Under the pieces are notes generated by a model, which searched no databases, was not told where the DNA came from, and was given only the letters and a program-made list of their open reading frames with translations. The translations under genes were made by a program, and so were the position numbers. From IMG/VR virus record IMGVR_UViG_3300008223_000001, positions 1-56,960 of that record: a stretch of 56,960 nucleotides of DNA. One strand, written 5' to 3'. This document shows positions 1-56,960 of this stretch, piece by piece; position 1 is the stretch's first letter, and every line of letters starts with the position of its first letter. Source of the stretch: a virus.

Positions 1-123
1 CTTGCTGAAAAGAATAAACAAAGCCTCGCAAGTGGGCGCTAAAGCTGGGAGTCGTCCTAAATTTAGCCGACGACGTAATGCGCCGGACGAAAAACCAGCA
101 AGCATTCGTGACAAGATGAATGC
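1..123. repeat. Terminal overlap, copy 1 (identical to 56838-56960)
   Basis: Base-by-base comparison: cttgctgaaaagaataaacaaagcctcg...gacaagatgaatgc is present at both ends. It lies inside a continuous reading frame. Confidence 0.95.
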
Positions 124-3007
124 GGCCGGTGGCGTTGTTAAGCATAAAGCGGATGCCATTCGTAACTTAAAGCTTGATGATTTGATGGCGATGTCGAAAG
201 ATCGTCGTGCCGTGATGCTTAATTTGATGACCGGCTTGCAGATTGAAGAGGTCTATAAATCGGTGTTTGATCAGATCAAAGCCGGTAATCCTTTGACGGA
301 GTATGCGAAGTTACTGCAAAGCATGGATGCCGTGCGCAATAACATCATGCACGATGCTGAAATGATTAATCAGTTATGGGACAAATTGAGCCCTAAAGAA
401 AGTGAAATCATGTCAGATCTAATGCTCGATGCGACATTTATGGGCCTGAATCCCGATCGCAATTACACAACGAGAGTGAATGTCGTCGGGATCAACAAGC
501 GCTTAGACACCATCCAGAAGCAATTAAATCATGCTGACTTTTTCAAGGACAGTAGTGAGGCCGCCATGTTATCGCTCAAAGGCGAACAAAAGCGACTCAT
601 GCGTGAACTCGATAACGAGAACCAGCGCCGACTCGCCTACCCTGTCTTGCGTAATCGTTATGAATCCATGTCAGATGAAGCCGTTGAAGTGTATCAGGCG
701 GTGAAAGGTTTCTTTGATAAGCAATGGGAAGATCAAAAGCGAGCCGTGCTCGATCGTATTGACCGTGCCTTTAATGATGATCCGGAAGCGTCGGACGTGG
801 CCAAAGAGGAAGTTGAGGCGATCTTTATGAAACGCTTAAAAGACGGCCCTTACTTTCCGCTTTCTCGTTTTGGTGACTTTGTATTAATTGCCAAGAAGGG
901 TGATGAATATATCCGTGAACATTTTGAGAACAGCACCGCGCGTGATCATCAGGCCAGTAAGTTTGAGGATCTTGGTTATGTTGTGACGAAAACAAAGACG
1001 AAAGAGTTTGTGCCAACCGACCTTGGCGACGTACCGGCCTTTGGGTCGGAAGTGTTCAGTTTACTCGATGATCATTTAGTCGGGGAACGGTTCCAAGACC
1101 TGAAAGACGACCTGAAGGACGATATTAATCAGCTGATTTTGAAAATGATGCCAGATGTCAGTTCGCTAAAACATTCGATCCATCGTAAAAAGATCAAAGG
1201 TTTTTCACAGGATTCACGTCGTGCCTTCTCACACACCGCCTTTCATGGTGCACACCATCTTACCCGTATCAAGCACGCTGATTTAATGCAGCATGAAATT
1301 GATGCGATGACGGATGAGGTCGACACCCTTGAAAAGTTACCGGAAAAAAGCGCGATTAGAAAAGACCAGGGGGACGTTGCGCGTGATGTTGCGAATCACA
1401 TGCGCGTACGCCACCATAAAATCATGAATCCGGACGCCTCGCCTTGGACAGCCTATGCCGGCAATCTTGGGTTTGTGATGTATTTGGGCTTTAGTTTGGG
1501 GGCTGGCTTAGTCAATTTGACCCAAACCGGCTTAATTGTCGCGCCGAAAATTGGCGCTAAGTATGGGCTGAAGGCCGCCTTTAAGGAATTGAACAAAGCC
1601 TTATTGCAATATACCCGCGCGCCTTTCAAGAAGGGAACTTATGAGTCGTGGAAATCCTTAAGCCGGAGTCAGGAGATTAAAAACGATGAGCGAGCGATGT
1701 TGATTCAATTGATCCGTGAAGGAACGATCGACACCACACAAGCCCACTCATTGGCCCAACTGTCTGAAACCGATACCCGTATGAGTAAAGAGGGTAATTT
1801 AAGCGAAAAAACCACACGATTTATGCGCTATAGCTCTGCCCTCTTTCATAATGCCGAGACCTTGAACCGAGAAGTCGCAGCACTGGCAGCGTATCGTATT
1901 GCGGTGAAAAATGGCGTGGACAAAGAGGCGGCTAAGATTTACGCCCGAAAAATGATTAACGATGGTCACTTTAATTACACCTCCACGAACCGCTCACAAT
2001 TCATGAAGAATGATGTGGTGAAAGTGCTCACACAGTTCCGGCAGTACTCGCAACACATATTGTTCACCTTAATTCGTGATACGCATCAAAGCCTCAAAGG
2101 TGAGACCAAAGAGATTAAACGGGAAGCACGCAAGGAATTGTCGGGCATTCTGGCACTACATTTTGTGGTGGCGGGGTTCTTAGGTCTGCCGTGGTTAGTT
2201 CAAGCGCCAATTTTATTAATGGGCAACTTGTTCCGTGATGATGACGATGAGCCCTACGAATTTGAAGATGATGCGCGTTCTTGGTTAGCTGAAAATCTTG
2301 GTGAAACCGCCGCAACCGCGTTGATGAAAGGCACCATTAATGCGTTGACGCCATTTGATTTGCATAGTCGGGTGAAATTAGACGGCCTACTGGTAATGAG
2401 CAACGACCGCGACTCTGAAATCAGAGACACCGGCGACATTATTATGCGGATGGTGGCCGGCCCAATGGGGGGATTACTCAGCAATTATGCACGAGGAGTC
2501 GACAATATTTCACAAGGCAATATTGAACGCGGCATCGAGAGTCTTGTGCCTAAAGCAGTACGTGATGTCATGCGATCAGGGCGTTATGCGGATGAGGGCT
2601 TGGTGGATTACAACGGCAATGAATTGATTCAGGAATTTACGGCACCGGAATTAGTGGGCCAAGCTGCGGGTATCGCGCCGGCGCGAGTGGGCGATTATTA
2701 CAAGGAAGCCAATGCTTTTAAAAACGCACAGAAGCGAATAGAGAAGCAACGTAAAACCATGCTGCGAAACTATGCCAAAGCGGCCGAAGATGGCGACGAC
2801 ACGAGCCGTGAGCAGTTGTTGGATGAAATGATTGAGTTCACTCAGAAGTACCCGACCCGTGCGATCTTTGCCGACAGTATTGTGCGATCAATGATGAGTC
2901 GAATTAAGCGTCGTCAGAAATTCGAGAACGGCATTTACTTACCCGACACCTACAACTTTCTTAGAAAACGAATTAACTTTAGAGGCAATGCCAATGACGA
3001 GTCATAA
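2..3007 (+). CDS. Giant polyvalent protein, 3' part (last 1,001 codons; PLxRFG region with hydrophobic hairpins)
   Basis: At 56821 the frame reads ...YTDLAF LLKRINKASQ..., which is the start of the listed 2..3007 ORF. 10,772 + 3,007 nt = 13,779 nt, divisible by 3. The 'M' at position 2 in the track is an internal TTG Leu. Motif PYFPLSRFGDF is present. Hydrophobic segments are YAGNLGFVMYLGFSLGAGLVNL (about 1444-1560) and LSGILALHFVVAGFLGLPWLVQAPILLMGNLF (about 2140-2235). TAA is at 3005-3007. Confidence 0.9.
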   Translation: MLKRINKASQVGAKAGSRPKFSRRRNAPDEKPASIRDKMNAAGGVVKHKADAIRNLKLDDLMAMSKDRRAVMLNLMTGLQIEEVYKSVFDQIKAGNPLTEYAKLLQSMDAVRNNIMHDAEMINQLWDKLSPKESEIMSDLMLDATFMGLNPDRNYTTRVNVVGINKRLDTIQKQLNHADFFKDSSEAAMLSLKGEQKRLMRELDNENQRRLAYPVLRNRYESMSDEAVEVYQAVKGFFDKQWEDQKRAVLDRIDRAFNDDPEASDVAKEEVEAIFMKRLKDGPYFPLSRFGDFVLIAKKGDEYIREHFENSTARDHQASKFEDLGYVVTKTKTKEFVPTDLGDVPAFGSEVFSLLDDHLVGERFQDLKDDLKDDINQLILKMMPDVSSLKHSIHRKKIKGFSQDSRRAFSHTAFHGAHHLTRIKHADLMQHEIDAMTDEVDTLEKLPEKSAIRKDQGDVARDVANHMRVRHHKIMNPDASPWTAYAGNLGFVMYLGFSLGAGLVNLTQTGLIVAPKIGAKYGLKAAFKELNKALLQYTRAPFKKGTYESWKSLSRSQEIKNDERAMLIQLIREGTIDTTQAHSLAQLSETDTRMSKEGNLSEKTTRFMRYSSALFHNAETLNREVAALAAYRIAVKNGVDKEAAKIYARKMINDGHFNYTSTNRSQFMKNDVVKVLTQFRQYSQHILFTLIRDTHQSLKGETKEIKREARKELSGILALHFVVAGFLGLPWLVQAPILLMGNLFRDDDDEPYEFEDDARSWLAENLGETAATALMKGTINALTPFDLHSRVKLDGLLVMSNDRDSEIRDTGDIIMRMVAGPMGGLLSNYARGVDNISQGNIERGIESLVPKAVRDVMRSGRYADEGLVDYNGNELIQEFTAPELVGQAAGIAPARVGDYYKEANAFKNAQKRIEKQRKTMLRNYAKAAEDGDDTSREQLLDEMIEFTQKYPTRAIFADSIVRSMMSRIKRRQKFENGIYLPDTYNFLRKRINFRGNANDES
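857..874 (+). other. PLxRFG signature
   Basis: Codons ccg ctt tct cgt ttt ggt give P-L-S-R-F-G. Confidence 0.7.
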
Positions 3008-5329: not shown

Positions 5330-5414
5330 TTGAGCGGTGCATAACTAAATAACTTGTTAACATGTTAATAGATCTTTTTATAATAGTAAGAGACACTTTG
5401 ATCATTTATTGATC
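5330..5414. promoter_or_regulatory. AT-rich segment with three GATC sites (candidate unwinding element)
   Basis: GATC at 5371, 5400 and 5411, within a visibly AT-rich stretch between the iterons and the 3' end of repA. Confidence 0.4.
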
Positions 5415-42020: not shown

Positions 42021-42021
42021 C

Positions 42022-43202: not shown

Positions 43203-43263
43203 ACTAGCCGGAACAGGATGACGCTAGACAGGATCAACTCATTATTTTTGAGGGCGTTCTCAC

Positions 43264-44064: not shown

Positions 44065-44075
44065 GGGTAATTATT

Positions 44076-44735
44076 ATGCCAACCGCCGCAGTCACAGCCG
44101 GAATCGGTGTCGCAGGGCTTGTTCAAGGCCATCAAGATGGCAAACGTGCCGACGCCGCCAATAAGACCAGTGCCGCCATCGCCAATCGTCAGGTGCAACT
44201 TTCTGAAGACCAGTGGGATTATTACAAAGAAATCTACCAGCCACTTGAGACGCAGTTAGCCGAAGATGCGGGAATCTCCCGTGAAGAAAGCGATCGTCGT
44301 GTCGCCAGAGTCGGGGCCGACGTCGATCAACAGTTTGACGTGGCGGATGCGTCTAATACACGCATGATGACGCGCATGGGGATTAATCCCAACTCCGGTG
44401 CCTTTGATAACCGGATGACCAGCAATGCCTTAGCGAAAGCGAAAGCGAAGTCCTCAGCGACTAATGCGACCCGCATACAATCTGAAAATGATGACTTTAA
44501 TCAAAAAATGGCCGTGGCTTCTATGGGTCAAGGGATCGCAAGCAATGTCAACGCTGGCCTCTCCGGTGCATCGGCCACCATGGGCAGTCTTGCTGCCACG
44601 CATGGTTCAAATGCGTCCGCCGCGACACAGATGGGGCTGTCACTGCTAAAAGATAGCGCGAGCAATATGCCCGACTTTGATTTTGGTTTTGGTTCAAGCA
44701 CCGTTGAGCCTACCCCCACCCCACAAACCGGCTAA
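44076..44735 (+). CDS. Putative internal virion/ejection protein
   Basis: Gly/Ala/Ser-rich. N-terminal hydrophobic AAVTAGIGVAGLV. It sits upstream of the giant gene. Confidence 0.4.
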   Translation: MPTAAVTAGIGVAGLVQGHQDGKRADAANKTSAAIANRQVQLSEDQWDYYKEIYQPLETQLAEDAGISREESDRRVARVGADVDQQFDVADASNTRMMTRMGINPNSGAFDNRMTSNALAKAKAKSSATNATRIQSENDDFNQKMAVASMGQGIASNVNAGLSGASATMGSLAATHGSNASAATQMGLSLLKDSASNMPDFDFGFGSSTVEPTPTPQTG

Positions 44736-44785
44736 GCAATCTCAAGCAGATAGGTAACGGGTTTTTAATTATTTAGGAGTGAGAT

Positions 44786-46066
44786 ATGTCGGGTTTTGGG
44801 TACATGGCAAGGGGCTATAACAATTTTCGCAGAGAAAGTCGTCGTGAAGATATTCAAGATGAACAGCGCGAGCGAACCACAGATAGTTATGAGTATGAAA
44901 AAGGGCTACGTCCTTTGAAAGAAGAGGCGTTACGTGCAGATATAGAGGCTAAGAAAGCGAATGGCGTGGGCTTAGGTTTAAACAATAAACTGAAGCAAAA
45001 CGACGTCGATCGACTTCCAACGACCAATGCGACGACGGATAAGAAAACCGAACTCGGCTTAAAAGCGCTCAAACAAGAAACCGATCAAAATGACATCGAA
45101 AGCGATTTTCTTCGTCAAGGTTTGGAAGATAAACAGACCTTAACCCAACAACAAATTAAGTCGAACCAGATGTCGCAAAGTATGATTGGTGAAAAATGGG
45201 ATGAAGAGAAAAACGCATGGTCAGATAAAGCGCGCATTCTCGCCTCGACCGCGACCAATGCCGAATTACAAACCTTGATTGCTGAAATTGACTTGGATAA
45301 TGCGAGGCTTGTTCAAGGCGTGAAGTCGGCCGAAACTGAAACCGCGCTCATGGGAAATCTCACTAAGCAACAAGCCCTTGTGTATAAGTTAATGGTCAAT
45401 GGTGAGAGCAAGATGGCGGCCGATTCATTGAACCGCAATAAGTTCAACGACATCGATACTGCCGCTGATATTTTCATTGATGACAAGACGGGTGACGCCA
45501 TCATTCTCGATGCGTCTGGTGAGGAGCTTAAGCGTATTACGAAAGAGCAGATGGACGGTTTCGCCCGTTTGTTTGATGAAAATACGACTAAAAAGGACAC
45601 GTACCAGCAAGACAGCACCGGCAAGTACTTCAAAGTCAGGGGCAATACGGCCTCGCCTGTTACGACGCCTGATGGTGAGCAGTTAGTGGGCGGTTTACCC
45701 AAAGGCTCCGGTAAATCGAGCGCCGGTGCGGTATCGGATAAGAAGTCTTTCCAAATTTCAATTAAGTATGGGGATGGAAAAGTTGAGGAGAAGAACTGGA
45801 CGAAAGCCGAGGCGCAGAAACACTATGAACAAAAATACAGCCTCATCCCGTCCGAACAATTAGATCAATTAATGCTGTCTGACCCGAAAGCGTGGAAATC
45901 CGCACTGCAAGAAAATAACGCTGCGCGTGAAGGTATTCCAAAGCTTGAAGAGTGGTTAGGCGATGTGATGAGCAATGGCATCCAATTAGGTGGCGGTGGC
46001 TTGCCTAGAAAAGAAGTTGCTGATGATGATGGTTCAAATGATGCGTTTTTTGAGGGCTTGAAGTAA
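44786..46066 (+). CDS. Putative internal virion/ejection protein (coiled coil)
   Basis: 426 aa, preceded by aggagtg. Its stop overlaps the ATG of the giant ORF. Confidence 0.4.
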   Translation: MSGFGYMARGYNNFRRESRREDIQDEQRERTTDSYEYEKGLRPLKEEALRADIEAKKANGVGLGLNNKLKQNDVDRLPTTNATTDKKTELGLKALKQETDQNDIESDFLRQGLEDKQTLTQQQIKSNQMSQSMIGEKWDEEKNAWSDKARILASTATNAELQTLIAEIDLDNARLVQGVKSAETETALMGNLTKQQALVYKLMVNGESKMAADSLNRNKFNDIDTAADIFIDDKTGDAIILDASGEELKRITKEQMDGFARLFDENTTKKDTYQQDSTGKYFKVRGNTASPVTTPDGEQLVGGLPKGSGKSSAGAVSDKKSFQISIKYGDGKVEEKNWTKAEAQKHYEQKYSLIPSEQLDQLMLSDPKAWKSALQENNAAREGIPKLEEWLGDVMSNGIQLGGGGLPRKEVADDDGSNDAFFEGLK

Positions 46067-49000
46067 TGGGAATTGAAGAACGCTGGAAAGGGGTTGAAGA
46101 AGACGAACGTTTTAGCAGTTTAGATGATGTGGGTAAAACCAAGGTTAAAGACAATTTCTTTAATCAGTATGTCACACCACGAGTCGCAGAAGACAAGCTA
46201 GACGTGGCGCGTGAACGTTTTGATGGTATTGCGTCCCCTGTTGTTGCGTATGACTATGTAAAGTCGATGGCCGGTGGTGCTGCCTCAATGGTGCAAGGGC
46301 TAAGTTGGTTAGCCAATAAAGGCACCGGTGGCGCTATTGATGAGAAATTTAATAAAGTGCTTGGTCGTTCCTTAACGGATATGGGCGGGGATGCCGCGAA
46401 GTATTGGACAGATAAGTTTTCAGCCAGCATGAAGCGATCGGCGTCTAAGCGTTTTATCTCAGATAAAGAAGGTGAAATCTTTGGGGATGCAATGTTAGAT
46501 CCTCATGCATGGGGCAACACGTTCGCGCAATCTATCCCAATGATGGTGCCTGGTATTGCCGCTGCCGGTCTCACGGCTAAAGCCTCGGTCGCAAGATCGC
46601 TTGGCGGTAAAGTCTTTGCGACAGAATCCGCGAAGAAAGTCGCTGAGAAAATCGCGATGAAGAAGGCAGCAGGAACCGCCGCTGTAGTGGGTTCAACCGC
46701 TGAAGGGACAATTAGTGCGGGGATGATTGGCCATAAAGTCGAGAGTCATATTCTCGGCATGAAACCCGAAGATTTAGTGGGTTCACCGTTTTTTGATGAA
46801 TTGATTGATAGTGGTATGGAAGTCGAAGCCGCACAAAAAGAACTCGCCCATAAAGCCAGTTTGAGTGCCGCTTTACCGGCCGGTGTCATGGTCGGTTTGC
46901 TAGGTTTCCACTTTAATAAGATGGTCGGTGATGCCGTGGTCGGTGGCCTATCCACGAATGTCGCCAAAGAAGCCGGTAAAGGCGCTGCACTCGAAGGCAC
47001 CACCGAAATCGCTCAAGGTTTGGCAGAAGGCATGATGGAGCAATCCACGCTGAACTCTGCGGCCAATGTTGACTTTAAACCACGCGATATCGCCAATGAT
47101 GCGGTCGCAGGTTTAGGGGCCGGTTCGAGCATGGGTTTTGCGGTCGGGGCTGGCGGCAGTATTAACAGCAATATTAAGCAGTACAAAGAAAACAAAGCAG
47201 GCACAGCACCGGATTCCGAAGAAAATGGAGCCCCACAACCGGAACCTGAAAATGATCTAGATGAGCAGCTCGAAACACTGCGTTCAGCCGGTGCCGATTT
47301 GCAGTCACAAATGATGCAAACCGATGATCAAAACGAAATTGCCGCACTACGTTCTGCCTTAGAAGAGGTACATACCCAAGCGTCCAACTTAGTTGAAGAG
47401 AATTATGAAGCGCCACCCGTCGATGGCGTTGAGGTCGATCAGGTATTAACTGAGCATGAGGCGCAGCGTGAAGAGATCCCTACCTTAACTGAGGAGGTAA
47501 AGCCGGAACGCATCGAACCGACGGATGAGCTTAATGCCGCCTTGAAAGAAGAGTTTCCGGAAATGCGCAGTTTTAGTGGCGATCAAGGTGAAAGCGCTTT
47601 TGAGTACCACCCTGAAGACTTTGATCAAGACTTAGAATTGGACGACTACGGGCAAGAACTCGCTGTCACGATCAATGAGGCACGTCACGCCGGTGTTAGC
47701 GAAACAGAACTTGAGAATGCCTTAGCCGGTGAAGCCGACGACAACCTTGTTCATGCCATTAACCAATTAACCCACGGGAGATTAAATTTTGAAACACAAA
47801 GCATTGGAACAAGCGAACCGGTGGCAGATGAAACCGCCGAAGTTACGCAAGCAGAATCAAGCAGTCAGCCAGCCAAGCCAGCCAGTATCACCAGTGAAGA
47901 AATAAGCGAAAAGGCCAATCAAGCTGCCACGTCGCCCACGAATGATTTAGCCGAGCCAACCCAAGCACAGAAAGAATCCGGCAATTATAAGAAGGGTGCG
48001 CCCTTTAAGTTGCACGGCTTGAATGTCGTGATTGAAAACCCGAAAGACTCCACTCGCTCCGGAGAGGACGAAAAAGGAAAGGCATGGTCGAATACCATGG
48101 GTGCTCACTATGGCGATATTAAAGGCACAAAAGGCGCTGATGGGGATGCACTCGATATCTTTATCGGCCCTAACCCTGAAGTCGATAAGTTCTATGTGAT
48201 CGATCAAATCAACCCGAACGATGGGACGTTTGACGAACATAAAATCATGTCGGGATTCAAGACCGCTGAAGAAGCCAAAGCCGCTTACTTATCATCATAC
48301 GATAAAGACTGGCAAGGCATTGGTGATATGCAATTCGCCACTAAGCAAGGCTTGGGTGCATGGATCAAAAAAGCGGATACCACGAAGCCCTATTATTCTA
48401 AAAGCACACTGCCATTAAAATCTAGCGCGGCAGAAGTAGTGCAAAAAGACACTACAGAAGTAGCGCAAAAGGAACCGCAAGATGTAGCGCAGAATAGCAC
48501 TACCTTAGACTTGATTGATTTTTCAGAAAAAGCCTATCTAGTGAAAGGTGAAACGAAAGTTCATAAAGAAAAGTTACAAGCACTTGGCGGCTCGTTCAAT
48601 CGTAAGCACCAAGGGTGGATGTACTCTAAGAAACGATCCGGCGAAAAGCTGAAAGCATTTGTTGATGATATCAACCGTTATCCTGACATCGAGAAGGATG
48701 TTGCGACGTGGAAAAGTGTAAATCCTTCTAGCGTACAGCCAGAATCATCCGTTGAAGGATTCAAACAAGGTCATCGCGATCGTAAAGACGGTAAACCGGC
48801 CGACCGATCGAAGGGTCACGCTTACGAGTTAGGCTTTTCGCTTGCATCCAAGAACCATGCAATTGACAAGAATGAAACCAAAGTTGATGAGGTGAATCAT
48901 GGACAAGTTCAGAAAGAAAGCACAACACCACAAATCAAAATTATCGAAACGAACCAAGAAGTACTTTCAGCTAAAGAAAAGGATCGAGACACATCCGCAC

Positions 49001-52000
49001 CGGTACAAGGATCAAGTGGAAGCAACGGACAAGTAGAGGGCAAACCAAACTCTAGGCCGAACTCACAGCCTAAGGCTGGCCTAGAGAATGATGAAGCAAG
49101 CCCCGCACAGCCTAGATCTCTTTCTAAAAGTTCCGAACAACTTTCGGATAAACCCAAGCCTAGCCTAAAGAAAAAAGCTAAGCCTAAGCTCCATAAAACT
49201 ATTGATCGTCTTGAAAACTACTTCAAACCCGATCGCATTGTGAAGTCATATTTTGGCCAAGACAAAGTGATTAGCTTTGAGCGTGGTGATGATAACAAGT
49301 GGACGGTCGTCGTTGCAGAAGCTGATGCAGACGGCAAGGTTATTGGCGATTCACGAAGCCATAGCACCGCCCCCTCAAACAAAGAGCTTTTAGCGTGGGA
49401 AAAGACTAATCCTATTGGTGCTGAAGACAAAGCGACACAATCCGTCGCCAAGAATGAAGGCACCGCACCGGAGCATTTAGGCAATGAAGGCAAGCCGCTT
49501 GACCATAAAAATAAGTTTTCCCCCGCATTTGAAGGGGAAGTCATTGAGCACGCTGTTCTAGATGAGGGTATCGAGTTACTTGAGATCGATAAGAAGGCGT
49601 TTGCAGAAATAATTAATTCCCGTGTTGATTTGTTTACCTCGCCTAAAAACTTGGTGCTCAATGCTAAGCGCGTGAATGAAAGCGAAATATTACAACCGCC
49701 AGAGAGGCCGGTAGGCTTAGAGTACGGAGTATGGGAAATAAAAGCTCGTTCAGAGGTGGTCGCAGAGCTTAAAGCCGACATGCGGGGCGAAGGTTATAAA
49801 TCCCCAGCAAGCGGCGAACGTATCATCATTGAATTGCTTAACGACGAGGGGAAGCCTGTATCTAAAGCCAACGGCTCTACCAGAAATAATACATACAGAA
49901 TTCGATCAAATTATAATAATCGCTTCACCGAAGCTCCCCGCTTACTCTTAGAAAAGCCAAAGGCGAGAGTTAAGTTTCGTGAAGAGATTGTGAAACATAA
50001 AGATTCAGATACAGCTTATGACAAAATGCGTGCCGCCGCTAACGCGATGTGGCTTGAGCTTGACAGAGACATCATGGTGCGCGATCAATGGGTTTCTCAT
50101 GCCATTGCACAAAGTGAAGATTCAGCGACACACCGCGAGAACAGTCAGCGAACAATCCTCTCTCTTTTTGATTACACCGGTATGTGGGGCCAACCTTATG
50201 CTGATGCTGGCTACAACGTTATCCCGTTAGACATTCAGAACGGGCATGACATCCTAGATTTAAACCATGAATATTTATCAGAAGTACTCGGCATTGAAGG
50301 GGAAATCTATGGCATTTTAGCCGCGTGTCCGTGTACTGACTTTTCTAATGCCGGCGCACGTCATTATCCGCCAAAAGATGCAGACGGCCGAACCGAAGCA
50401 AGTAAAGAATTGGTGATCGCAACCTTGGAAGCGATCGAAGCCATCGACCCTAAGTTTTGGGTGCTTGAAAATCCGATTGGACGCATTGAAAAGTTAACCG
50501 GTTTACCCAATGCGCGCATGAATTTTGACCCGTGGCAGTTTGGCCATGCCTACACCAAGAAAACCTATCTTTGGGGTAAGTTCAATACTGACTTGCCACT
50601 TGCACCGGTTGATCCCGTGATGGGCAGTAAGATGCACGCAAAGTATGGCGGTAAATCGATTGCGACCAAGAATGCGCGCAGTAAAACCCCTGAGAATTTT
50701 GCTTACTCTTTCTTTATGGCCAATAACTTTGCCGATGCGACACCAGAGAAGCGATTAACGGATGAATACCCCGAAGTCTCCGGAGCGGTTAAAGCCGCAT
50801 TGAATGGCGGTATCAGTGAAGATCGAATCCATGAACTCATCGAGTTCGATTATGGCAATCAGGATTATGCAGATGCTCGAAAAGTATTGGCTGATGAGAT
50901 CCTAAAGACAAACCCAACAGAAAGTAGTAAGGTTCAACAGAGCCAGATTACTAAGGATAAAGCGCATGTCAAAGATCCAAACAACGATAGCCGAAACGAT
51001 CAAAGAACTGAATCCAAGCAAGTACCAGGCACTGATGAAATCGGGGGATCTGGACGTGATGTTGTGGGACTATCAGGAACAGGTAAGCGAAGTGGCAAGC
51101 CGAGCAGCAACAGTAGCAGTGCGCGCGTTGACGAATCCAACGACGCTGGAAAGAACACAAGCGATGCAGCAAGCAGCGAATCAAGCAACGGAGATCGAGC
51201 TAAGCCAGATACTGGAAGAAGTGACACTCCTATATCAGAAAACTACCGCATAACGAGCAAAGACAAGCTTGGCGAAGGTAAACCGCTCGAAAAAGCCCGT
51301 GCTAACCTCGATGCCATTGGCATTATTAAAACACTTCAAAAAGAAAACAGACCCGCCTCAGATGCCGAACGCGCCCAGCTTGTAAAATACACCGGTTGGG
51401 GAGCCGGTGCTTTAGCCAACAACCTTTTTCCGACTAAAGGCGAGCCGTCCGGTTCATGGAAAGGCTTATACGATGAAATGCGTGAGCTATTAACGCCAGA
51501 AGAACTGACCACGGCTTCACGTAGTACTCAGTACGCGCATTACACACCCAAGGCAGTGATTGATTCCATCTATAAAGCATTGGGCAATATGGGCTTTAAA
51601 CGAGGCATGACGCTTGAGGGTGGATTAGGCACCGGTCACTTTATTGGGCTCGCACCGAAGAAAATGCACATGGAGTACGTGGGCGTTGAAATGGATGGCA
51701 TAAGTGCCGCTATTGGTAAAGCGCTCTACCCTAACGCCAGCGTTATTCATGGTGACTTTACCCGCATTGGTTTACCTGAAAACTTCTTTGATTTGTCGAT
51801 CGGCAATCCACCGTTCGCGAGTATTACCGTCAAGAGTGATCCTAAGTACAAAGCACTCGGCTTTAAGCTGCATGATTACTTTATTGCCAAACAAATAGAC
51901 TCCGTGAAAGCCGGTGGTTTAGCGGTATTTGTGACCAGCAAAGGCACGATGGATAAAGTTGATAGCGCTGCGCGTGATTACTTGGCAGACAAAGCGAACT

Positions 52001-55000
52001 TATTAGGGGCGATGCGTTTACCACAAACTGCTTTTAAAGCCAGTGCAGGCACCGAAGTAGTGACCGATATTCTATTTTTTCAGAAGAAGCCGGAAAGATT
52101 TAATGAAAAGGGTGAGAAAGAAAAAGTAGACGGCGGCCACACTTGGCAGGGCTTGAGAACAATCAGCACACCCGATGGCACCGCTAAGATCAATCAATAC
52201 TTTGCGAGCAATCCGGACATGATTTTGGGTGAGTCTCGTCTAACCAGTAGCCGGTTTGGAGGCAACGAATACACCGTCGCGCCAACAGGAAACATCAACA
52301 CCTTGCTCAAAGAGGCAGTGGCAAAACTGCCGAGTAATTTGGTTGAACGCAATCCGACCGTGAAAGAATTGGATGAGCGCGCACGCTTGTATGATTTTGG
52401 CCCGAAGCGTAAAGAAGACTCGTTTTATGTCGGTGGCAAAGGTGATATTCGTGTTATCCGTGACGGCTTTGGTCAGTCGGTGCCAGTGAGAGGGGGCGAG
52501 CAGCGTTCCGGACTCACTAAGAAGCAAGCTGAAATTATTCGTGACTACATTCCGATGCGTGATGCGGTGATGAAGGTCTATGCCGAACAGTTTAGCGATG
52601 GGGATTGGAAAGGCGCACAGAAAGCACTCAGTAAAGAATATGAGGCTTTTGTTAAAAAACACGGCCCGATCAATCAATCTAAAACCACCATCCGTAAAGA
52701 TGGCGTTGAAATGATTCGCGAGCCGGTATTATCCGCCTTGGATCTTGATCCAGAAGCCTATCGTGTTGCGGGTATTGAACATTATGATGCCACCACGAAC
52801 ACCGGTGAAAAGGCCGACATCTTTACCAAAAAGATTATCGATCGCAACGCCAGCACGTCCATTGAAACCGCCGCCGACGCGATGAATGTCACGCTCAATG
52901 AGCGCGGATTCTTGGATATCGAATATTTGATTGAGAAGTACAACCAACCTTTAGAAGACGTATTGACCGAGCTAGGTGAAGCCGCTTACCTTAATCCGGA
53001 AACCGAAAGCTATGTGACGGCGGATGATTACTTATCTGGCAACGTAAAACAAAAGCTTTATTTGGCGAAGAAAGCGGCGAAAGATGATAAGACCTATGGC
53101 CGGAACGTTGAAGCCTTAGAATCGGTGCAACCTGACGATATGCCGGTCTCACGTATACCGATGAACTTAGGCGCGCACTGGATTCCGGCGACGATCGTTG
53201 AGGAATTTGCGAAAGAGACCATTGGGCTTACGGGCACGGTAACGAGTTTTATCAAGGGTGATAAATCCAGTTGGGATGTGACCGGCCAAACATTAATGGG
53301 TAAGTTCGGCACCGGAAGAATGAGCCCACATAAACTTTTATCTGCCGCACTGAATAAGAAAACCGTAGTGATCCGTGATTCCGATCCGAGTGGCGAGAAA
53401 GGCGCGACGGTAATTAATAAGCCGGAAACTGCTGCTGCCAATCAAAAGATCCAAGAGCTTAAAGCTGCGTTTGAAAAGTGGGCACTCAATAATGTTGAAG
53501 TCTCTGAGCAGTTGCATGAGATCTACAATCGCGACTTCAATACCATGGTGCCACGGCAGTACAATGGCGACCACCTAACGTTACCGCGTTTATCGAGCAA
53601 GTATGTGCTGCACAAGTGGCAGAAAGATGTCGTGTGGCGCATTCTGCAAACCGGCAATACTTACATGGCGCATGATGTGGGGGCGGGTAAAACGCTTGCC
53701 TCCACCGTGGCCGGTATGGAATTAAAACGCCTTGGTTTGGCGAAAAAGCCGACGTATGTTGTGCTCAAGTCAACGCTTAAACAGTTTGCGACCGAGTTAT
53801 TAGACGCGTATCCGGATGCGAATATTTTAGTCGCAGATGAACGTCAGCTAGATAAGAAGAACCGTCGTCGTTTCCTCGCCAAAATAGCGAACAATGATTA
53901 TGACGCCATTATCATGACGCATGAATCTTTTGAAACCATCCCGATGTCGGATGAGTTTGTGACCGATTATATAAATGGCCAGCTAAAAGAATACCAAGAG
54001 ACCCTTGAAAGTATCGATGAAGCAGATCGCGCAAGCCGGAAAACGGTTGAGGGACAAATTGAGTCGCTCAATAACCAGTTAGTCGCACTGAATAACCAAG
54101 GTAAGAAAGATAAAGGGATCACTTTTCAGGAAACAGGCATTGATTTTGTCTTTGTCGATGAAGCGCATCACCACAAGAAGATCCCCTTCCCGACTAATCA
54201 AAGCAATACTAAAGGCGTGGACTCTAGCGGATCGCAACGCGCGCAAGATCTATTTATGAAGTCGCGTTACCTGAACAGCATCAAACCAAACAAAAATTTG
54301 GTGTTGATGAGTGGTACGCCGGTGACGAATACCTTGGGCGAAGTGTTTAACATTCAACGTTATCTACAGCCCGACGCACTTGAAGCCGGTAAAGTTTCTT
54401 CGTTTGATGCGTGGTCAGCGACGTTCGCTGATACCGTGACGGAATTAGAAATGCAAGCGAGCGGCGGTTTTAAGCCGGTGACCCGTTTGGCGAGGTTTGT
54501 TGGCATACCTGCCCTACTCCGTGACTTCTTGCGTATTGCCGATATCGTATCGAATAAAACCCTGAGTGAGTCACTAACCATTAAGCGGCCTGAAATCGAA
54601 ACCGGCGCACGTCAGATGTTGACGACGAAGCGCACGCCAGAATTGGCGCAATTTCAGAAAGAGTTAGGCGCACGTATTAAGGCCTTAGAAAACAAAAAAG
54701 GCGGAGCCAAAAAAGGCGAAGATAATACCCTAGTGATCATCACAGATGGCCGAAAAGCGGCTTATGATATGCGCATGGTGGGGCGTGAACAGACGGGGCC
54801 GAGTAAAATCGATTTACTCATCGATGAGGTGGCCAAAGAGTATCACGCTACTTCTGACGATGTGTACGCCATCAAAGGCAAACCCGAAGTCTTGAAAGGA
54901 TCGGCACAATTGATCTTTACTGAATTAGCGAAGGCGAGCGGATTTAATATCTATGAATACATTCGCACAGAGTTAGTTAAGAAAGGCGTCCCCGAAAAGG

Positions 55001-56960
55001 AAATCGCGTTTATACAAGAGGCGAATAATTCAAATAAAAAGAAAAAGCTTTTCCGTGATATGAATACCGGCGTGAAACGAATCATGATTGGCGGCTCAAA
55101 GAATATGGGCACCGGTGTGAACGTTCAGCAACGTTTAGTGGCGCTGCATCATTTGGATGTCGATTATTTACCGGCGCATATCGTACAGCGTGAAGGCCGT
55201 GCAATCCGTCAGGGCAATAAGAACGCGGATATGGGTAAGGCCGTAAAGTTAGTGGCGTATGCGACCGAAGGCACCATTGACGCCTTCATGTGGCAGCTAA
55301 ACCAGACTAAGCAAACGATGATCGATCAGATCATGAGCGGCGACCTGTCCATTGATACCATGGAAGATGTCAGCGACTCCGTTAACCAAATGGCAATGGC
55401 CAAAGCACTCGCGTCGGGTAATCCGTTATTGTTGGAGCAAGCCGGTTTAGAGGCAGAAGTGCGCAAGCTGGAAGCTTTGAAAGAAGCCCACATTAACCAA
55501 CGGTTTCATGCGCGTGGGGGTATTGTTAATCTTAAAGAAACCGTGGCACGACTAACCGCCGCCCAAAAACCGTTTAAAGCGCTGGCACAACAGTACCAAG
55601 AAACCAAAGGGGATAAATTCAAAGCCACGATTGACGGCGCGAGTTTTAAAGATCGAAAGAAAGCCGGTGATGAGCTGTTGGATCTCGCAATGATCGCGAC
55701 CACGAATAAGCAGGCGGAAACGACAAAGGTCGGCAATATCGGTGGTTATGATGTGTTTATGCGCGCTTATTACGGCGATCAAGTCAGTATCGACGTGGGC
55801 CATAGTAGTAAGGCCGAGGGCGTATTAAACGACGCTTATCGTTTTGATACGGTCATCTTACGAATGGATGATAAGCCTAGCGCCGTGGGCGTGATTCGTC
55901 AGATTGAAAACGCGGCCGGTTTGATCAATCGCCACCCTGAAAAGTTAAGCGTACACCTTGACGAAACAAACCAGAAGGTTAAGAACCTACAGTCATTATT
56001 GAATTCAGAGTTCCAGTATGAGACCGACTTGCAAGAAAAGTCTGAACGACTTGAGCAAGTGAATAATGATATTGAAGCGTTTGATGAGGAGGCGGTTGAA
56101 GAAACAACACCTGCAGGTGTTGTTTCCGAAGAATCAGAGGCGCTTGGGTTTAACCGGCGCGCTCCGGTTTTCTCCCGTAGAAGTAGTGCAGTCTCCGACG
56201 GAGACACTATTGCCGAGCGGGTGGAAACGCCCCTTGATCATGATTTCGTTGTTTCGGAAGTAGCGCGGCTCCGGAAGCTCCTCAACTTGAGTGCTAAGGT
56301 CAAGTTTCAAACGGTCTTTGATCCGGAAACGCTCAAGTACGACATTAAAGAGCAGGCGAAGCTTGATGGGTTTGATATTCATGAGGCAGAAGGCATCCTA
56401 TTTGAAGACACCGTGTATGTGATGTCTAAGCAAATTATGAGTGTAGCACAACTGCATCAAGTCGTGCTTCACGAGGCCGCGCACTACGGGGGCTGGGCGA
56501 TGTACGGTAAAGACATGAAAACCGCTTACCGTGATATCTGGATCAAGATGGACGGCGTTAAGGGGATTAAGAAGCGCGCCGCCAAGCTTGGCTTTAATAT
56601 GGATCAGTACTTTGTCTCTGAAGACGCTAAGTACAGTAACGGCAAAGTGACCGCCGAGGAGCGTATCAGAACGCTAGTGGATGAGTTTATTGCTCATGCG
56701 AATGAGGCAAAAGCCAGCGAGCATGTCGGACAAAAACTAAAACGATGGATCAAAGAGTTCATTGGTCAGTTCCGCCAATTGATGACTAAGCACTTTTCTA
56801 AAGAATTCGCGCGGTTTACCTATACAGACCTCGCCTTCTTGCTGAAAAGAATAAACAAAGCCTCGCAAGTGGGCGCTAAAGCTGGGAGTCGTCCTAAATT
56901 TAGCCGACGACGTAATGCGCCGGACGAAAAACCAGCAAGCATTCGTGACAAGATGAATGC
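46066..56960 (+). CDS. Giant polyvalent protein, 5' part (continues across the junction into 2..3007; total 4,592 aa)
   Basis: The ATG at 46066 overlaps the TAA of the upstream gene (TAATG). The frame with pos mod 3 = 1 showed no stop in the long stretches I translated by hand (46066-48700, 48901-51300, 51541-51960, 53581-53940, 56461-56960). Every plus-strand ORF the track lists in this span is in another frame, and only antisense shadow ORFs are listed on the minus strand. The track omits this ORF because it has no in-window stop. Confidence 0.9.
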   Translation, partial: MGIEERWKGVEEDERFSSLDDVGKTKVKDNFFNQYVTPRVAEDKLDVARERFDGIASPVVAYDYVKSMAGGAASMVQGLSWLANKGTGGAIDEKFNKVLGRSLTDMGGDAAKYWTDKFSASMKRSASKRFISDKEGEIFGDAMLDPHAWGNTFAQSIPMMVPGIAAAGLTAKASVARSLGGKVFATESAKKVAEKIAMKKAAGTAAVVGSTAEGTISAGMIGHKVESHILGMKPEDLVGSPFFDELIDSGMEVEAAQKELAHKASLSAALPAGVMVGLLGFHFNKMVGDAVVGGLSTNVAKEAGKGAALEGTTEIAQGLAEGMMEQSTLNSAANVDFKPRDIANDAVAGLGAGSSMGFAVGAGGSINSNIKQYKENKAGTAPDSEENGAPQPEPENDLDEQLETLRSAGADLQSQMMQTDDQNEIAALRSALEEVHTQASNLVEENYEAPPVDGVEVDQVLTEHEAQREEIPTLTEEVKPERIEPTDELNAALKEEFPEMRSFSGDQGESAFEYHPEDFDQDLELDDYGQELAVTINEARHAGVSETELENALAGEADDNLVHAINQLTHGRLNFETQSIGTSEPVADETAEVTQAESSSQPAKPASITSEEISEKANQAATSPTNDLAEPTQAQKESGNYKKGAPFKLHGLNVVIENPKDSTRSGEDEKGKAWSNTMGAHYGDIKGTKGADGDALDIFIGPNPEVDKFYVIDQINPNDGTFDEHKIMSGFKTAEEAKAAYLSSYDKDWQGIGDMQFATKQGLGAWIKKADTTKPYYSKSTLPLKSSAAEVVQKDTTEVAQKEPQDVAQNSTTLDLIDFSEKAYLVKGETKVHKEKLQALGGSFNRKHQGWMYSKKRSGEKLKAFVDDINRYPDIEKDVATWKSVNPSSVQPESSVEGFKQGHRDRKDGKPADRSKGHAYELGFSLASKNHAIDKNETKVDEVNHGQVQKESTTPQIKIIETNQEVLSAKEKDRDTSAPVQGSSGSNGQVEGKPNSRPNSQPKAGLENDEASPAQPRSLSKSSEQLSDKPKPSLKKKAKPKLHKTIDRLENYFKPDRIVKSYFGQDKVISFERGDDNKWTVVVAEADADGKVIGDSRSHSTAPSNKELLAWEKTNPIGAEDKATQSVAKNEGTAPEHLGNEGKPLDHKNKFSPAFEGEVIEHAVLDEGIELLEIDKKAFAEIINSRVDLFTSPKNLVLNAKRVNESEILQPPERPVGLEYGVWEIKARSEVVAELKADMRGEGYKSPASGERIIIELLNDEGKPVSKANGSTRNNTYRIRSNYNNRFTEAPRLLLEKPKARVKFREEIVKHKDSDTAYDKMRAAANAMWLELDRDIMVRDQWVSHAIAQSEDSATHRENSQRTILSLFDYTGMWGQPYADAGYNVIPLDIQNGHDILDLNHEYLSEVLGIEGEIYGILAACPCTDFSNAGARHYPPKDADGRTEASKELVIATLEAIEAIDPKFWVLENPIGRIEKLTGLPNARMNFDPWQFGHAYTKKTYLWGKFNTDLPLAPVDPVMGSKMHAKYGGKSIATKNARSKTPENFAYSFFMANNFADATPEKRLTDEYPEVSGAVKAALNGGISEDRIHELIEFDYGNQDYADARKVLADEILKTNPTESSKVQQSQITKDKAHVKDPNNDSRNDQRTESKQVPGTDEIGGSGRDVVGLSGTGKRSGKPSSNSSSARVDESNDAGKNTSDAASSESSNGDRAKPDTGRSDTPISENYRITSKDKLGEGKPLEKARANLDAIGIIKTLQKENRPASDAERAQLVKYTGWGAGALANNLFPTKGEPSGSWKGLYDEMRELLTPEELTTASRSTQYAHYTPKAVIDSIYKALGNMGFKRGMTLEGGLGTGHFIGLAPKKMHMEYVGVEMDGISAAIGKALYPNASVIHGDFTRIGLPENFFDLSIGNPPFASITVKSDPKYKALGFKLHDYFIAKQIDSVKAGGLAVFVTSKGTMDKVDSAARDYLADKANLLGAMRLPQTAFKASAGTEVVTDILFFQKKPERFNEKGEKEKVDGGHTWQGLRTISTPDGTAKINQYFASNPDMILGESRLTSSRFGGNEYTVAPTGNINTLLKEAVAKLPSNLVERNPTVKELDERARLYDFGPKRKEDSFYVGGKGDIRVIRDGFGQSVPVRGGEQRSGLTKKQAEIIRDYIPMRDAVMKVYAEQFSDGDWKGAQKALSKEYEAFVKKHGPINQSKTTIRKDGVEMIREPVLSALDLDPEAYRVAGIEHYDATTNTGEKADIFTKKIIDRNASTSIETAADAMNVTLNERGFLDIEYLIEKYNQPLEDVLTELGEAAYLNPETESYVTADDYLSGNVKQKLYLAKKAAKDDKTYGRNVEALESVQPDDMPVSRIPMNLGAHWIPATIVEEFAKETIGLTGTVTSFIKGDKSSWDVTGQTLMGKFGTGRMSPHKLLSAALNKKTVVIRDSDPSGEKGATVINKPETAAANQKIQELKAAFEKWALNNVEVSEQLHEIYNRDFNTMVPRQYNGDHLTLPRLSSKYVLHKWQKDVVWRILQTGNTYMAHDVGAGKTLASTVAGMELKRLGLAKKPTYVVLKSTLKQFATELLDAYPDANILVADERQLDKKNRRRFLAKIANNDYDAIIMTHESFETIPMSDEFVTDYINGQLKEYQETLESIDEADRASRKTVEGQIESLNNQLVALNNQGKKDKGITFQETGIDFVFVDEAHHHKKIPFPTNQSNTKGVDSSGSQRAQDLFMKSRYLNSIKPNKNLVLMSGTPVTNTLGEVFNIQRYLQPDALEAGKVSSFDAWSATFADTVTELEMQASGGFKPVTRLARFVGIPALLRDFLRIADIVSNKTLSESLTIKRPEIETGARQMLTTKRTPELAQFQKELGARIKALENKKGGAKKGEDNTLVIITDGRKAAYDMRMVGREQTGPSKIDLLIDEVAKEYHATSDDVYAIKGKPEVLKGSAQLIFTELAKASGFNIYEYIRTELVKKGVPEKEIAFIQEANNSNKKKKLFRDMNTGVKRIMIGGSKNMGTGVNVQQRLVALHHLDVDYLPAHIVQREGRAIRQGNKNADMGKAVKLVAYATEGTIDAFMWQLNQTKQTMIDQIMSGDLSIDTMEDVSDSVNQMAMAKALASGNPLLLEQAGLEAEVRKLEALKEAHINQRFHARGGIVNLKETVARLTAAQKPFKALAQQYQETKGDKFKATIDGASFKDRKKAGDELLDLAMIATTNKQAETTKVGNIGGYDVFMRAYYGDQVSIDVGHSSKAEGVLNDAYRFDTVILRMDDKPSAVGVIRQIENAAGLINRHPEKLSVHLDETNQKVKNLQSLLNSEFQYETDLQEKSERLEQVNNDIEAFDEEAVEETTPAGVVSEESEALGFNRRAPVFSRRSSAVSDGDTIAERVETPLDHDFVVSEVARLRKLLNLSAKVKFQTVFDPETLKYDIKEQAKLDGFDIHEAEGILFEDTVYVMSKQIMSVAQLHQVVLHEAAHYGGWAMYGKDMKTAYRDIWIKMDGVKGIKKRAAKLGFNMDQYFVSEDAKYSNGKVTAEERIRTLVDEFIAHANEAKASEHVGQKLKRWIKEFIGQFRQLMTKHFSKEFARFTYTDLAFLLKRINKASQVGAKAGSRPKFSRRRNAPDEKPASIRDKMN
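46240..47175 (+). other. Gly/Ala-rich hydrophobic N-terminal region of the giant protein
   Basis: Segments include MAGGAASMVQGLSWL, SIPMMVPGIAAAGLTA, AAGTAAVVGSTAEGTISAGMIG, LSAALPAGVMVGLLGF and GLGAGSSMGFAVGAGGS. It resembles the membrane-active parts of ejection or tape-measure-type proteins. Confidence 0.5.
47980..48330 (+). other. Pyrophosphatase-like (InPase-type) module of the giant protein
   Basis: Hand translation: GNYKKGAPFKLHGLNVVIENPKDSTRSGEDEKGKAWSNTMGAHYGDIKGTKGADGDALDIFIGPNPEVDKFYVIDQINPNDGTFDEHKIMSGF. I recognise this pattern from polyvalent phage and plasmid proteins. Confidence 0.55.
50152..50730 (+). other. Minimal C5-cytosine DNA-methyltransferase-like module
   Basis: Motif I-like LSLFDYTGMWG (50161). 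Motif IV PC in AACPCTDFS (Pro-Cys at 50329-50334). Motif VI-like WVLENP. Then AYTKKTYLWG. It is only about 190 aa, and no obvious target-recognition domain follows. Confidence 0.6.
51247..52100 (+). other. N6-adenine DNA methyltransferase module (NPPF class)
   Basis: YTGWGAGALANNLF. AdoMet motif LEGGLGTGHF. Catalytic motif NPPF at 51805-51816. Then GGLAVFVTSKGTMDK. Confidence 0.8.
53590..55330 (+). other. SF2 (DEAH/SNF2-like) helicase module
   Basis: Walker A HDVGAGKT (GAGKT at 53680-53694). Walker B DEAHHHKK (DEAH at 54157-54168). MSGTPVTN. Motif VI QREGRAIRQGN (55186-55215). Confidence 0.8.
56440..56520 (+). other. HExxH zincin-like motif in the giant protein
   Basis: QVVLHEAAHYGGWAMYG, with HEAAH at 56470-56484. 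Confidence 0.45.
56838..56960. repeat. Terminal overlap, copy 2 (identical to 1-123)
   Basis: Same 123 bases as the window start. This is the signature of circular assembly or circular permutation. Confidence 0.95.

Follow-up and report, generated by a model that had tools for sequence, protein, structure and literature searches.

In the 56,960-nucleotide stretch of viral DNA considered here (positions 1 to 56,960 of IMG/VR virus record IMGVR_UViG_3300008223_000001, hereafter the window), a single gene crosses the point where the two ends of the sequence join and encodes a protein of 4,592 amino acids (aa). The whole body of evidence is best explained, with a probability of roughly three in four, by a polyvalent virion protein of 509 kDa, encoded by a temperate, podophage-like element that is probably maintained as a plasmid. 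The protein belongs to the giant DarB-like/PLxRFG class and would be injected as a counter-defence factor. A conserved N-terminal domain and a conserved C-terminal block, made up of a zincin-like region, large polyvalent-protein-associated domain 39 (LPD39) and the PLxRFG domain, frame a variable cargo. In this protein the cargo consists of an inorganic pyrophosphatase (InPase), a captured C5-cytosine-methyltransferase-like enzyme, and an N6-adenine methyltransferase (MTase) fused to a SWI2/SNF2 translocase. The chain carries the domain and motif content of five predicted enzymatic activities.

Bases 1-123 of the window are identical to bases 56838-56960, no longer overlap is present, and a circle of 56,837 bp is left once one copy of the repeat is removed. 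From the ATG at 46066, frame 1 runs through 3,631 codons to base 56960 without a stop. In the circularised sequence it continues to the TAA at 3005-3007, giving 13,779 nt and 4,592 codons, or 24.2% of the replicon, and a predicted protein of about 509 kDa. The closest in-frame stop upstream lies at 46051, the start codon overlaps the TAA of an upstream 426-aa open reading frame (ORF) in the sequence TAATG, and a Shine-Dalgarno-like GAGGG is located 9 nt 5' of the ATG. A preliminary description of the window had proposed this junction-spanning, uninterrupted frame, with its length, its share of about 24% of the replicon and its TAATG overlap, and had ascribed its absence from the gene track to the want of a stop inside the window. 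Circularised translation and the independent assembly described below agree with that account. The ORF list contains only the entry '2..3007 TTG 1001 aa', because ORFs running off an end are unlisted. The parts of the gene are as follows.

46066 to 56960, + strand: 5' part of the giant ORF (aa 1-3631), open to the window end and crossing the circular junction
1 to 3007, + strand: 3' part of the giant ORF, with the stop TAA at 3005-3007; bases 1-123 duplicate 56838-56960
56838 to 56960: 123-bp terminal repeat, identical to 1-123, marking a circular or circularly permuted assembly

The ORF is present only once the ends are joined through the 123-bp repeat, as would also be seen if assembly or circularisation had falsely joined two unrelated ORFs at the contig ends. 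The probability of such an artefact is next to nil. In an independent ENA assembly (ERZ511465, contig NODE_303, 56,915 bp), which has a different breakpoint, the giant gene lies unbroken in mid-contig. This contig matches the circularised window over 33,779 bp with 0 mismatches and has the 123-bp repeat in single copy. The called ENA product, P0274 (4,592 aa), is identical to the reconstructed protein, and it shares one protein-database cluster with the 1,001-aa stump from the 56,960-bp JGI contig. Additionally, homology to gp6 of the Klebsiella phage SopranoGao is collinear across the junction (aa 1647-4565), and intact genes of 9-15 kb are found in relatives. An open frame of 4,592 codons cannot have arisen by chance at 46% GC. 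The giant gene and its join are confirmed as real. A megablast search of the giant gene against phages and plasmids gave no match, and the element has no close sequenced DNA relative.

Apart from the breakpoint, the two assemblies of the circle differ solely in the length of the overlap between contig ends, with 123 bp in the window and 78 bp in the ENA contig (implied by 56,915 - 56,837). The two lengths agree with overlaps left by the assemblers on a circular or circularly permuted genome rather than with a physical terminal repeat. In the ENA annotation, an 81-aa ORF at 2994-3239 (+) overlaps the final 14 nt of the giant gene.

Module architecture of the giant protein

Modules were searched for with Pfam on protein tiles, NCBIfam, BLASTP and tblastn to phages, local hidden Markov models (HMMs), and hydropathy. 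From the N-terminus to the C-terminus, the following modules are displayed by the chain.

46285 to 47211, + strand, aa ~74-382: Gly/Ala-rich conserved N-terminal domain, by BLASTP to Bcep22 gp75, SopranoGao gp6, and the giants of Vibrio phages douglas and 1F273
47962 to 48369, + strand, aa 633-768: InPase, the type-I inorganic pyrophosphatase of polyvalent proteins, full-length match to PF18823 (E 5.1e-50)
49453 to 50913, + strand, aa ~1130-1616 (catalytic core ~1305-1616): captured standalone C5-cytosine-MTase-like gene, by partial PF00145 match, homologues and an AlphaFold2 (AF2) model
51178 to 56085, + strand, aa ~1705-3340: DarB-like unit, N6-adenine MTase plus SWI2/SNF2-type superfamily 2 (SF2) ATPase, by BLASTP, Pfam and motifs
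56263 to 56865, + strand, aa ~3400-3600: putative zincin-like metallopeptidase region, with HEAAH at aa 3469 and a downstream VDEFIAHANE helix
176 to 841, + strand, aa 3650-3871: LPD39, PF18858 (E 3.6e-23)
845 to 2947, + strand, aa 3873-4573: PLxRFG domain, with PLSRFG at aa 3877, NF032893 (E 3.5e-172)

All catalytic motifs of the InPase, C5-MTase, N6-MTase and SF2 ATPase modules are intact.

The N-terminus, described earlier as Gly/Ala-rich and hydrophobic, proved to be a conserved domain with a single hydrophobic segment (aa 263-283, by hydropathy). No match to it was found in Pfam or NCBIfam. A local HMM of the domain also matches the giant of phage Heva (E 1.6e-31), and the domain is common to Bcep22-type and PLxRFG-type giants; it is probably part of a 'chassis' for virion incorporation and ejection. 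The pyrophosphatase-like module of the preliminary description is borne out by the PF18823 match. It carries the motifs IENP, HYGDI, DGDALD and DG.FDEHK and is 51% identical by BLASTP to its counterpart in Vibrio phage douglas 12A4. The long disordered linkers reported before correspond to four long low-complexity stretches between the N-terminal modules (aa 361-426, 581-640, 928-1058 and 1593-1766). A word-indexed homologue search with aa 1-1700 returned only two InPase-containing proteins, and the linkers probably swamped its candidate list. The stretch between the InPase and the C5 module (aa ~790-1130; 48436-49452, + strand) is without a family match and has a detectable counterpart in just 3 of 156 relatives. 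A small basic segment, 'AYLVKGETKVHKEKLQALGGSFNRKHQGWMY', lies within this stretch at aa ~817-870.

The C5 module was previously taken for a minimal C5-MTase-like domain. Its C5-MTase-like nature was upheld, and its minimal size was not. PF00145 matches aa ~1398-1469 at 25.3 bits (cutoff 22), covering only model positions 52-110 of 324, and a sequence search of the PDB with the module gave no match. The motifs LFDYTG (for S-adenosylmethionine), PCT and ENP are located at aa 1367, 1422 and 1468, and PC(T) and ENP are invariant in an alignment of 75 members of the module family. There are 696 standalone homologues of about 350 aa with 50-60% identity, several of them named DNA cytosine methyltransferase. 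They align to aa 1305-1616, and their N-termini to aa 1130-1212. As whole standalone proteins are aligned, an entire gene, not a minimal remnant, has been fused in frame. The AF2 model built from the 75-sequence alignment has a predicted local distance difference test (pLDDT) score of 85.5 and a predicted template-modelling (TM) score of 0.86. When this model was searched with Foldseek, the top 23 PDB matches were all C5 DNA MTases (probability ~1), among them DNMT3A/B, the prophage CP-933R enzyme 3g7u, M.HhaI, M.HaeIII and DNMT1. The module is accepted here as C5-cytosine-MTase-like with an intact catalytic Cys and Glu, and its activity and specificity are predictions.

The standalone C5-like family (the 696 matches) barely matches PF00145, has a very short region at the site of the target-recognition domain, and seems uncharacterised. 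One standalone homologue was observed on a conjugative plasmid of Acinetobacter baumannii, between the replication and partition genes (Rep3/ParAB) and the genes for the relaxase and type IV coupling protein. This position would fit a protective orphan methylase that acts early upon entry.

The DarB-like unit was described beforehand as an NPPF N6-MTase followed by a DEAH SF2 helicase. The collinearity with P1 DarB supports this order, and the helicase is of the SWI2/SNF2 type, not of the DEAH-box type. The N6-MTase motifs are YTP, GLGTGHF (aa 1855) and NPPF (aa 1914), and those of the SF2 ATPase are GAGKT (aa 2539), DEAHH (aa 2698), SGTP (aa 2749) and QREGRAIRQG (aa 3041). HMM support was found for the MTase and helicase modules, being partial for the C5 module (PF00145), weak for the N6-MTase (Eco57I-type, aa ~1905-1978), and above cutoffs for DEAD, SNF2-rel_dom and Helicase_C (aa 2518-3050). 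A DEAH-box RNA helicase was rejected, as the matches are of the SNF2/DarB type. The unit shows 38-42% identity to proteins annotated as 'DarB-like antirestriction protein' in the Burkholderia phages Bcep22, BcepIL02 and DC1 and in many Ralstonia phages. BLASTP against P1 DarB yields three collinear blocks (E 2e-20, 3e-18 and 4e-11; 22-30% identity). The kinship with DarB and polyvalent proteins that had been proposed is supported by these blocks together with PF18823 and PF18858. A GWGAG at aa 1777, N-terminal to the adenine MTase, resembles the GxGU motif of LPD36, a four-helix domain, and the Pfam scan gave no LPD36 HMM match. Precomputed Pfam matches on the identical ENA protein include PF28553 (WH_1), PF28554 (DUF8437) and PF28555 (Helicase_dom), which probably cover the region between N6-MTase and helicase (aa ~2060-2500) and part of the helicase.

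At the C-terminus, the PLSRFG region with two hydrophobic hairpins that had been reported is matched by NF032893 at 574.4 bits (cutoff 100) over model positions 1-677 of 681. LPD39 and the LPD36-like motif were missing from the earlier list of modules. The hairpin-like segments occupy aa 4077-4098 (nt 1457-1522) and aa 4302-4335 (nt 2132-2233). A hydrophobic segment about 270-290 aa from the C-terminus is kept in all five PLxRFG-type proteins, and one about 480-515 aa from it in three (the giant protein, douglas and Skulduggery). In tblastn, the C-terminal 1,000 aa are 26-30% identical to phage 'PLxRFG proteins' of Klebsiella Lastavirus, Erwinia PEp14/Pavtok, Serratia Parlo and Pseudomonas Skulduggery, as well as Ochrobactrum, Agrobacterium, and Sinorhizobium PBC5-like phages and two Vibrio phages.

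Upstream of LPD39, the HEAAH region is a probable zincin-like domain by motif and position. Each of the seven giants compared has exactly one HExxH or HExxxH motif, at an equivalent position, where 0.03-0.29 per protein would be expected by chance. The seven-sequence alignment shows no variation at the H, E and H of the motif, and it also preserves HExxH-G together with an (A/V)(E/D)E..A...E helix further downstream. This region and the linkers suggest another explanation, in which the giant is a polyprotein. The zincin-like domain would cleave at the Ser/Lys/Pro linkers before or after packaging, the enzymes would act separately, and only some fragments would be delivered. The four linkers between modules and the single HExxH conserved in every giant compared suit this proposal; autoprocessing by the metallopeptidase was proposed by Iyer et al., and P1 DdrB is processed before packaging (PMC5512222). 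On the other hand, a peptidase fold is not demonstrated for the HEAAH region, no cleavage sites are known, and the N4 virion RNA polymerase, in which a metallopeptidase-like domain is present, is packaged unprocessed (PMC5512222). A polyprotein is therefore considered unlikely, without being far-fetched.

Relatives and the range of cargo

Polyvalent proteins were defined by Iyer, Burroughs, Anand, de Souza and Aravind in 2017 (PMC5512222), with InPase, LPD39 and zincin metallopeptidases among their domains. In that work a module of LPD36, N6-MTase and SWI2-SNF2 is typified by DarB, and the zincin signature is the commonest hub domain. The giant protein resembles the class in having at least two unrelated effector domains in one chain (InPase, C5-MTase-like, N6-MTase, SNF2 ATPase and LPD39), in the class-defined PF18823 and PF18858, in its late/packaging gene context and in its zincin-like HExxH region. 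It differs in that a C5-cytosine MTase is not among the domains discussed in PMC5512222, where 'cytosine' occurs once in the main text; the name PLxRFG is not used there.

The size of the family was examined by an exhaustive HMMER search of cluster representatives with the LPD39 and PLxRFG part as the query. This search gave 7,146 cluster representatives, 2,620 of them at E <= 1e-30. Among the best 150 of the 7,146, the domain stops no more than about 20 residues short of the C-terminus in nearly all (42 residues in one). Proteins of at least 3,000 aa account for 55 of these best 150, those of at least 4,000 aa for 23, and those of at least 5,000 aa for 6, with a maximum of 6,026 aa. Many of the shorter relatives are probably truncated by contig ends. 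Giants of 3,000-5,100 aa as the last gene of the virion module are a hallmark of Bcep22-like, Lastavirus, PEp14-like, PBC5-like and Vibrio podophages, as seen in the following proteins, each encoded by the last gene of that module.

Bcep22 gp75: 4,602 aa
Heva gp07: 4,545 aa
SopranoGao gp6: 4,369 aa
1F273 gp63: 3,763 aa
Skulduggery gp28: 3,695 aa
douglas VPAG_00062: 3,026 aa
Pseudomonas phage 8P gp023: 5,145 aa

For a sample of 156 proteins (149 relatives and 7 phage proteins), each was scanned against the modules of the giant protein. PLxRFG was found in 154 and LPD39 in 139, compared with 25 for InPase and about 24 for the DarB unit. Five metagenomic relatives have InPase, DarB unit, LPD39 and PLxRFG in this order, and the C5-MTase module was found only in phage 8P. 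No protein in this limited sample of 156 relatives combines InPase, C5-MTase and DarB unit. Every pairwise cargo combination has a precedent, and the shuffling of cargo between conserved ends is the class-defining behaviour. The module combination had been put forward as new, in a last gene following putative ejection proteins. The exact cargo set is indeed unmatched among the 156; its novelty was overstated, given phage 8P, the five relatives with InPase, DarB unit and PLxRFG, and the giants in the same gene position.

The conservation of the ends against the variation of the cargo also bears on a possible, though clearly less favoured, alternative that ranks a little above the polyprotein. 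The giant may be mainly a genome-delivery (ejectosome) component, whose N-terminal domain and hairpin-bearing PLxRFG domain would form or hold in place a trans-envelope conduit, a role that T7 gp16, P22 gp16/gp20 and the N4 ejection proteins have. The enzymes would then ride along as optional cargo, with counter-defence as a secondary effect. In its favour, conservation extends to the hydrophobic segments, Bcep22 and SopranoGao have an N-terminal lytic transglycosylase like T7 gp16, and such giants have been termed putative ejection proteins (PMC8402733). Against it, the giant protein is without an SLT domain, no homology to known ejection proteins was detected with Pfam or NCBIfam, and the PLxRFG and N-terminal domains are known from sequence alone. 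The proposal is moreover compatible with an injected counter-defence protein and does not exclude it.

Among individual relatives, the closest in size are the Bcep22-type giants (Bcep22 gp75, BcepIL02 gp76 and JC1 gp69 of Lessievirus, and also those of Ralstonia Cimandefvirus), with 4,602 versus 4,592 aa and about 22-24% of the genome. They share the position as last gene of a syntenic module, the N-terminal domain, the DarB unit and the single HExxH at the equivalent place. They differ in an N-terminal SLT lytic transglycosylase (PF01464), which Pfam does not find in the giant protein, and in the absence of InPase and C5-MTase; BLASTP similarity stops at aa 3338. These phages are integrating or lytic phages of Burkholderia and Ralstonia with 65% GC. 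The local HMM of LPD39 and PLxRFG gave no match to Bcep22 gp75 or Heva gp07, and a whole-length Bcep22-type orthologue was rejected on that basis. The JC1 giant (gp69, DarB-like, 4,515 aa, 22.1% of the genome) was detected by mass spectrometry in CsCl-purified virions (PMC9144972), and the same source refers to work of Gill et al. in which virions of Bcep22 and BcepIL02 were analysed by mass spectrometry. A DarB-like protein of 4,877 aa is encoded by Atu_ph08 gp21 (PMC6630229). Bcep22-like phages are without the packaging partners DarA, Hdf and DdrA (PMC9144972, PMC6630229).

SopranoGao gp6 (Klebsiella, Lastavirus) is collinear with the giant protein over aa 1647-4565 at 29% identity, shares the N-terminal domain and is the last gene of its virion module. 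It differs in having an N-terminal SLT and neither InPase nor C5-MTase; the Lastavirus paper is without proteomics. Phage 8P gp023 has three of the modules in the same order, with identities of 48% for the C5-MTase, 34% for the N6-MTase/SNF2 unit and 23% for the PLSRFG domain. Phage 8P has no detectable InPase, and a tyrosine integrase is found there versus plasmid-type RepA and ParA here; no paper on this phage was found in the literature. The giants of the Vibrio phages douglas 12A4 (VPAG_00062) and 1F273_PE002 (gp63) have the N-terminal domain right at the N-terminus, no SLT, and then an HExxxH region, LPD39 and PLxRFG. They come from phages of marine hosts with similar genome size, and the InPase is shared with douglas. 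They differ in a small stand-alone-type MTase (NPPF) without an SNF2 helicase and in having no C5-MTase.

Further comparisons are offered by P1 DarB (2,255 aa). According to the summary in PMC5512222, this protein resides inside the capsid and shields the DNA in cis from type I restriction. It likewise fuses an N6-adenine MTase (NPPF/Y) to an SF2 ATPase of the SWI2/SNF2 type, and the three collinear blocks lie within this dyad. It reaches half the size of the giant protein and contains the dyad alone, without InPase, C5-MTase, LPD39 or PLxRFG; it is also a myovirus head protein whose packaging needs DarA, Hdf and DdrA. The N4 virion RNA polymerase and T7 gp16 are alike as very large proteins of short-tailed phages that are packaged, threaded through the tail, and combine delivery with enzymatic roles. 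They differ in their enzymes (RNA polymerase and transglycosylase), and sequence homology to them was not detected. The literature recognises putative ejection proteins of very large size in short-tailed phages (PMC8402733).

Virion module and replicon

The giant gene is the last of the virion module, after the terminase, portal, head, tail-fibre and internal-virion genes. The genes directly upstream and the maintenance genes of the replicon are as follows.

38302 to 46066, + strand: upstream virion-module genes, PHROGs phrog_511, 496, 651/1249 and 8003, syntenic with Bcep22-like phages
38302 to 39927, + strand: internal virion protein, by phmmer to Bcep22 gp67 (E 1e-72)
39927 to 42020, + strand: tail fibre, by PHROGs
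43264 to 44064, + strand: acetyltransferase-like, by PHROGs
44076 to 44735, + strand: virion structural protein of 219 aa, by phmmer to Bcep22 gp70 (E 5e-12)
44786 to 46066, + strand: 426-aa ORF whose stop overlaps the giant-gene start
3961 to 4755, 5413 to 6288 and 10370 to 11134, all - strand: plasmid-type maintenance genes, namely a small serine resolvase, RepA and a ParA-type ATPase, adjoining phage genes

Bcep22 gp67 and gp70 are both annotated as virion-associated. The phage genes of the replicon comprise those for TerS, TerL, portal, major head protein, a protease-like protein, tail fibres and the internal virion protein. Also encoded there are NinB, an exonuclease, an O-like replication protein and two proteins that resemble repressors. 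At about 31% identity, the portal matches its counterparts in marine Roseobacter CRP phages and Sinorhizobium phiM6. RepA matches PF10134 (E 5e-57) and is about 40% identical to plasmid initiators of Rhodobacteraceae. No tyrosine integrase was found among the window ORFs of at least 100 aa, only the small serine resolvase. Maintenance genes beside phage genes and the lack of a tyrosine integrase point to a phage-plasmid, and this lifestyle is plausible. The phage-plasmid setting had been named as part of what looked new. RepA and ParA, the virion module and circularity make the setting itself plausible, and PLxRFG giants on phage-sized 'plasmids' are already present in PLSDB. In that database, phage-sized, non-mobilizable circular 'plasmids' with annotated PLxRFG giants include pANC7919.1 of Acinetobacter sp. 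ANC 7919 and records from Brucella, Chromobacterium, Massilia and A. baumannii. The 60.7-kb circular pANC7919.1 is made up of phage genes, among them those for a PLxRFG protein of 3,216 aa, an integrase, an ERF recombinase and an S24 repressor, and probably represents either a circular phage genome or a phage-plasmid.

The maintenance genes raise the alternative that the giant is a plasmid-type polyvalent protein delivered by conjugation instead of by a virion. RepA (PF10134), the ParA-type ATPase and the resolvase on the replicon would agree with this, polyvalent proteins are also found on conjugative elements (PMC5512222), and a standalone homologue of the C5-MTase lies on a conjugative plasmid. 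However, the window showed no genes for a relaxase, a coupling protein or a type IV secretion system. It does hold a full phage module, with terminase, portal, major head protein, tail fibres and internal virion protein, and the gene stands at the end of this module, as in phages. Conjugative delivery is thus very improbable.

Two other features of the replicon were observed. In relatives the giant gene is followed by a lysis cassette, whereas here the genes that come next lie on the other strand and no holin/endolysin cassette was identified. A CsrA-like gene of 64 aa is located at 12112-12306 (-), by a precomputed PF02599 match on the ENA gene call. The Bcep22-like phage JC1 also encodes CsrA and may package it, and CsrA may be a trait common to a wider phage group.

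Predicted role during genome entry

According to the favoured explanation, a few copies of the protein would travel inside the capsid and be threaded through the tail alongside the DNA; both steps are predicted from proteomics on Bcep22-type homologues. The terminal domains would serve as a chassis for packaging, ejection and membrane insertion. The DarB unit would translocate on the entering genome and methylate adenines in cis, protecting it from restriction, and the C5-MTase would add cytosine methylation against further restriction systems. The InPase could remove pyrophosphate or a nucleotide signal, and the zincin-like domain may cut the polypeptide into working pieces.

Several observations weigh against this explanation. 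For the C5 module, TIGR00675 scores 20.4 bits, below its cutoff of 100.65, TM-scores of the model against C5-MTases are only 0.3-0.38, and the segment of the target-recognition domain is very short, a few dozen residues by eye; the substrate of the module is therefore uncertain. The HEAAH zincin of the preliminary description retains its motif and positional conservation, and HMM or fold support for it was not obtained. The region gave no match in Pfam or NCBIfam, none in the PDB by sequence or by a profile of the seven giants, and none by tblastn against phages, and its AF2 model from two sequences (pLDDT 47) is unusable. The roles given to the InPase and the terminal domains are conjectural. 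Documented detection in virions is confined to Bcep22-type giants, in which an SLT is present and the C-terminus is not detectably PLxRFG.

A more far-reaching version of the injected counter-defence protein is improbable, although less so than conjugative delivery. The giant would be a membrane-anchored entry machine that, once ejected, inserts its N-terminal domain and PLxRFG hairpins into the inner membrane where the tail opens. From this anchorage the SWI2/SNF2 translocase would actively reel the genome in, the two MTases would place N6-methyladenine and 5-methylcytosine on the passing DNA, and the InPase would keep local pyrophosphate or nucleotide signals low. If this were true, the DNA would never be exposed unmethylated, and a new mode of genome internalisation coupled to protective modification would be at hand.

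The giant protein is a member of a known and very abundant class with a reshuffled enzyme set, and its position, size and most of its architecture are typical; no new category is opened by it. It stands out solely in joining InPase, C5-MTase and DarB unit within a single chain, encoded on a replicon that also carries maintenance genes of plasmid type. The finding also indicates that contig-end artefacts can hide the largest gene of a phage, as IMG-style calling reduced this one to a stump of 1,001 aa, so that 24% of the genome went without annotation. With the recovered gene, a member is added to a huge class of giant delivered proteins (more than 7,000 clusters) that is experimentally almost untouched. 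Since it joins two DNA methyltransferases, a translocase and a pyrophosphatase, the protein represents a convenient case for the function of cargo other than DarB and for the question of whether the terminal domains act as a chassis.

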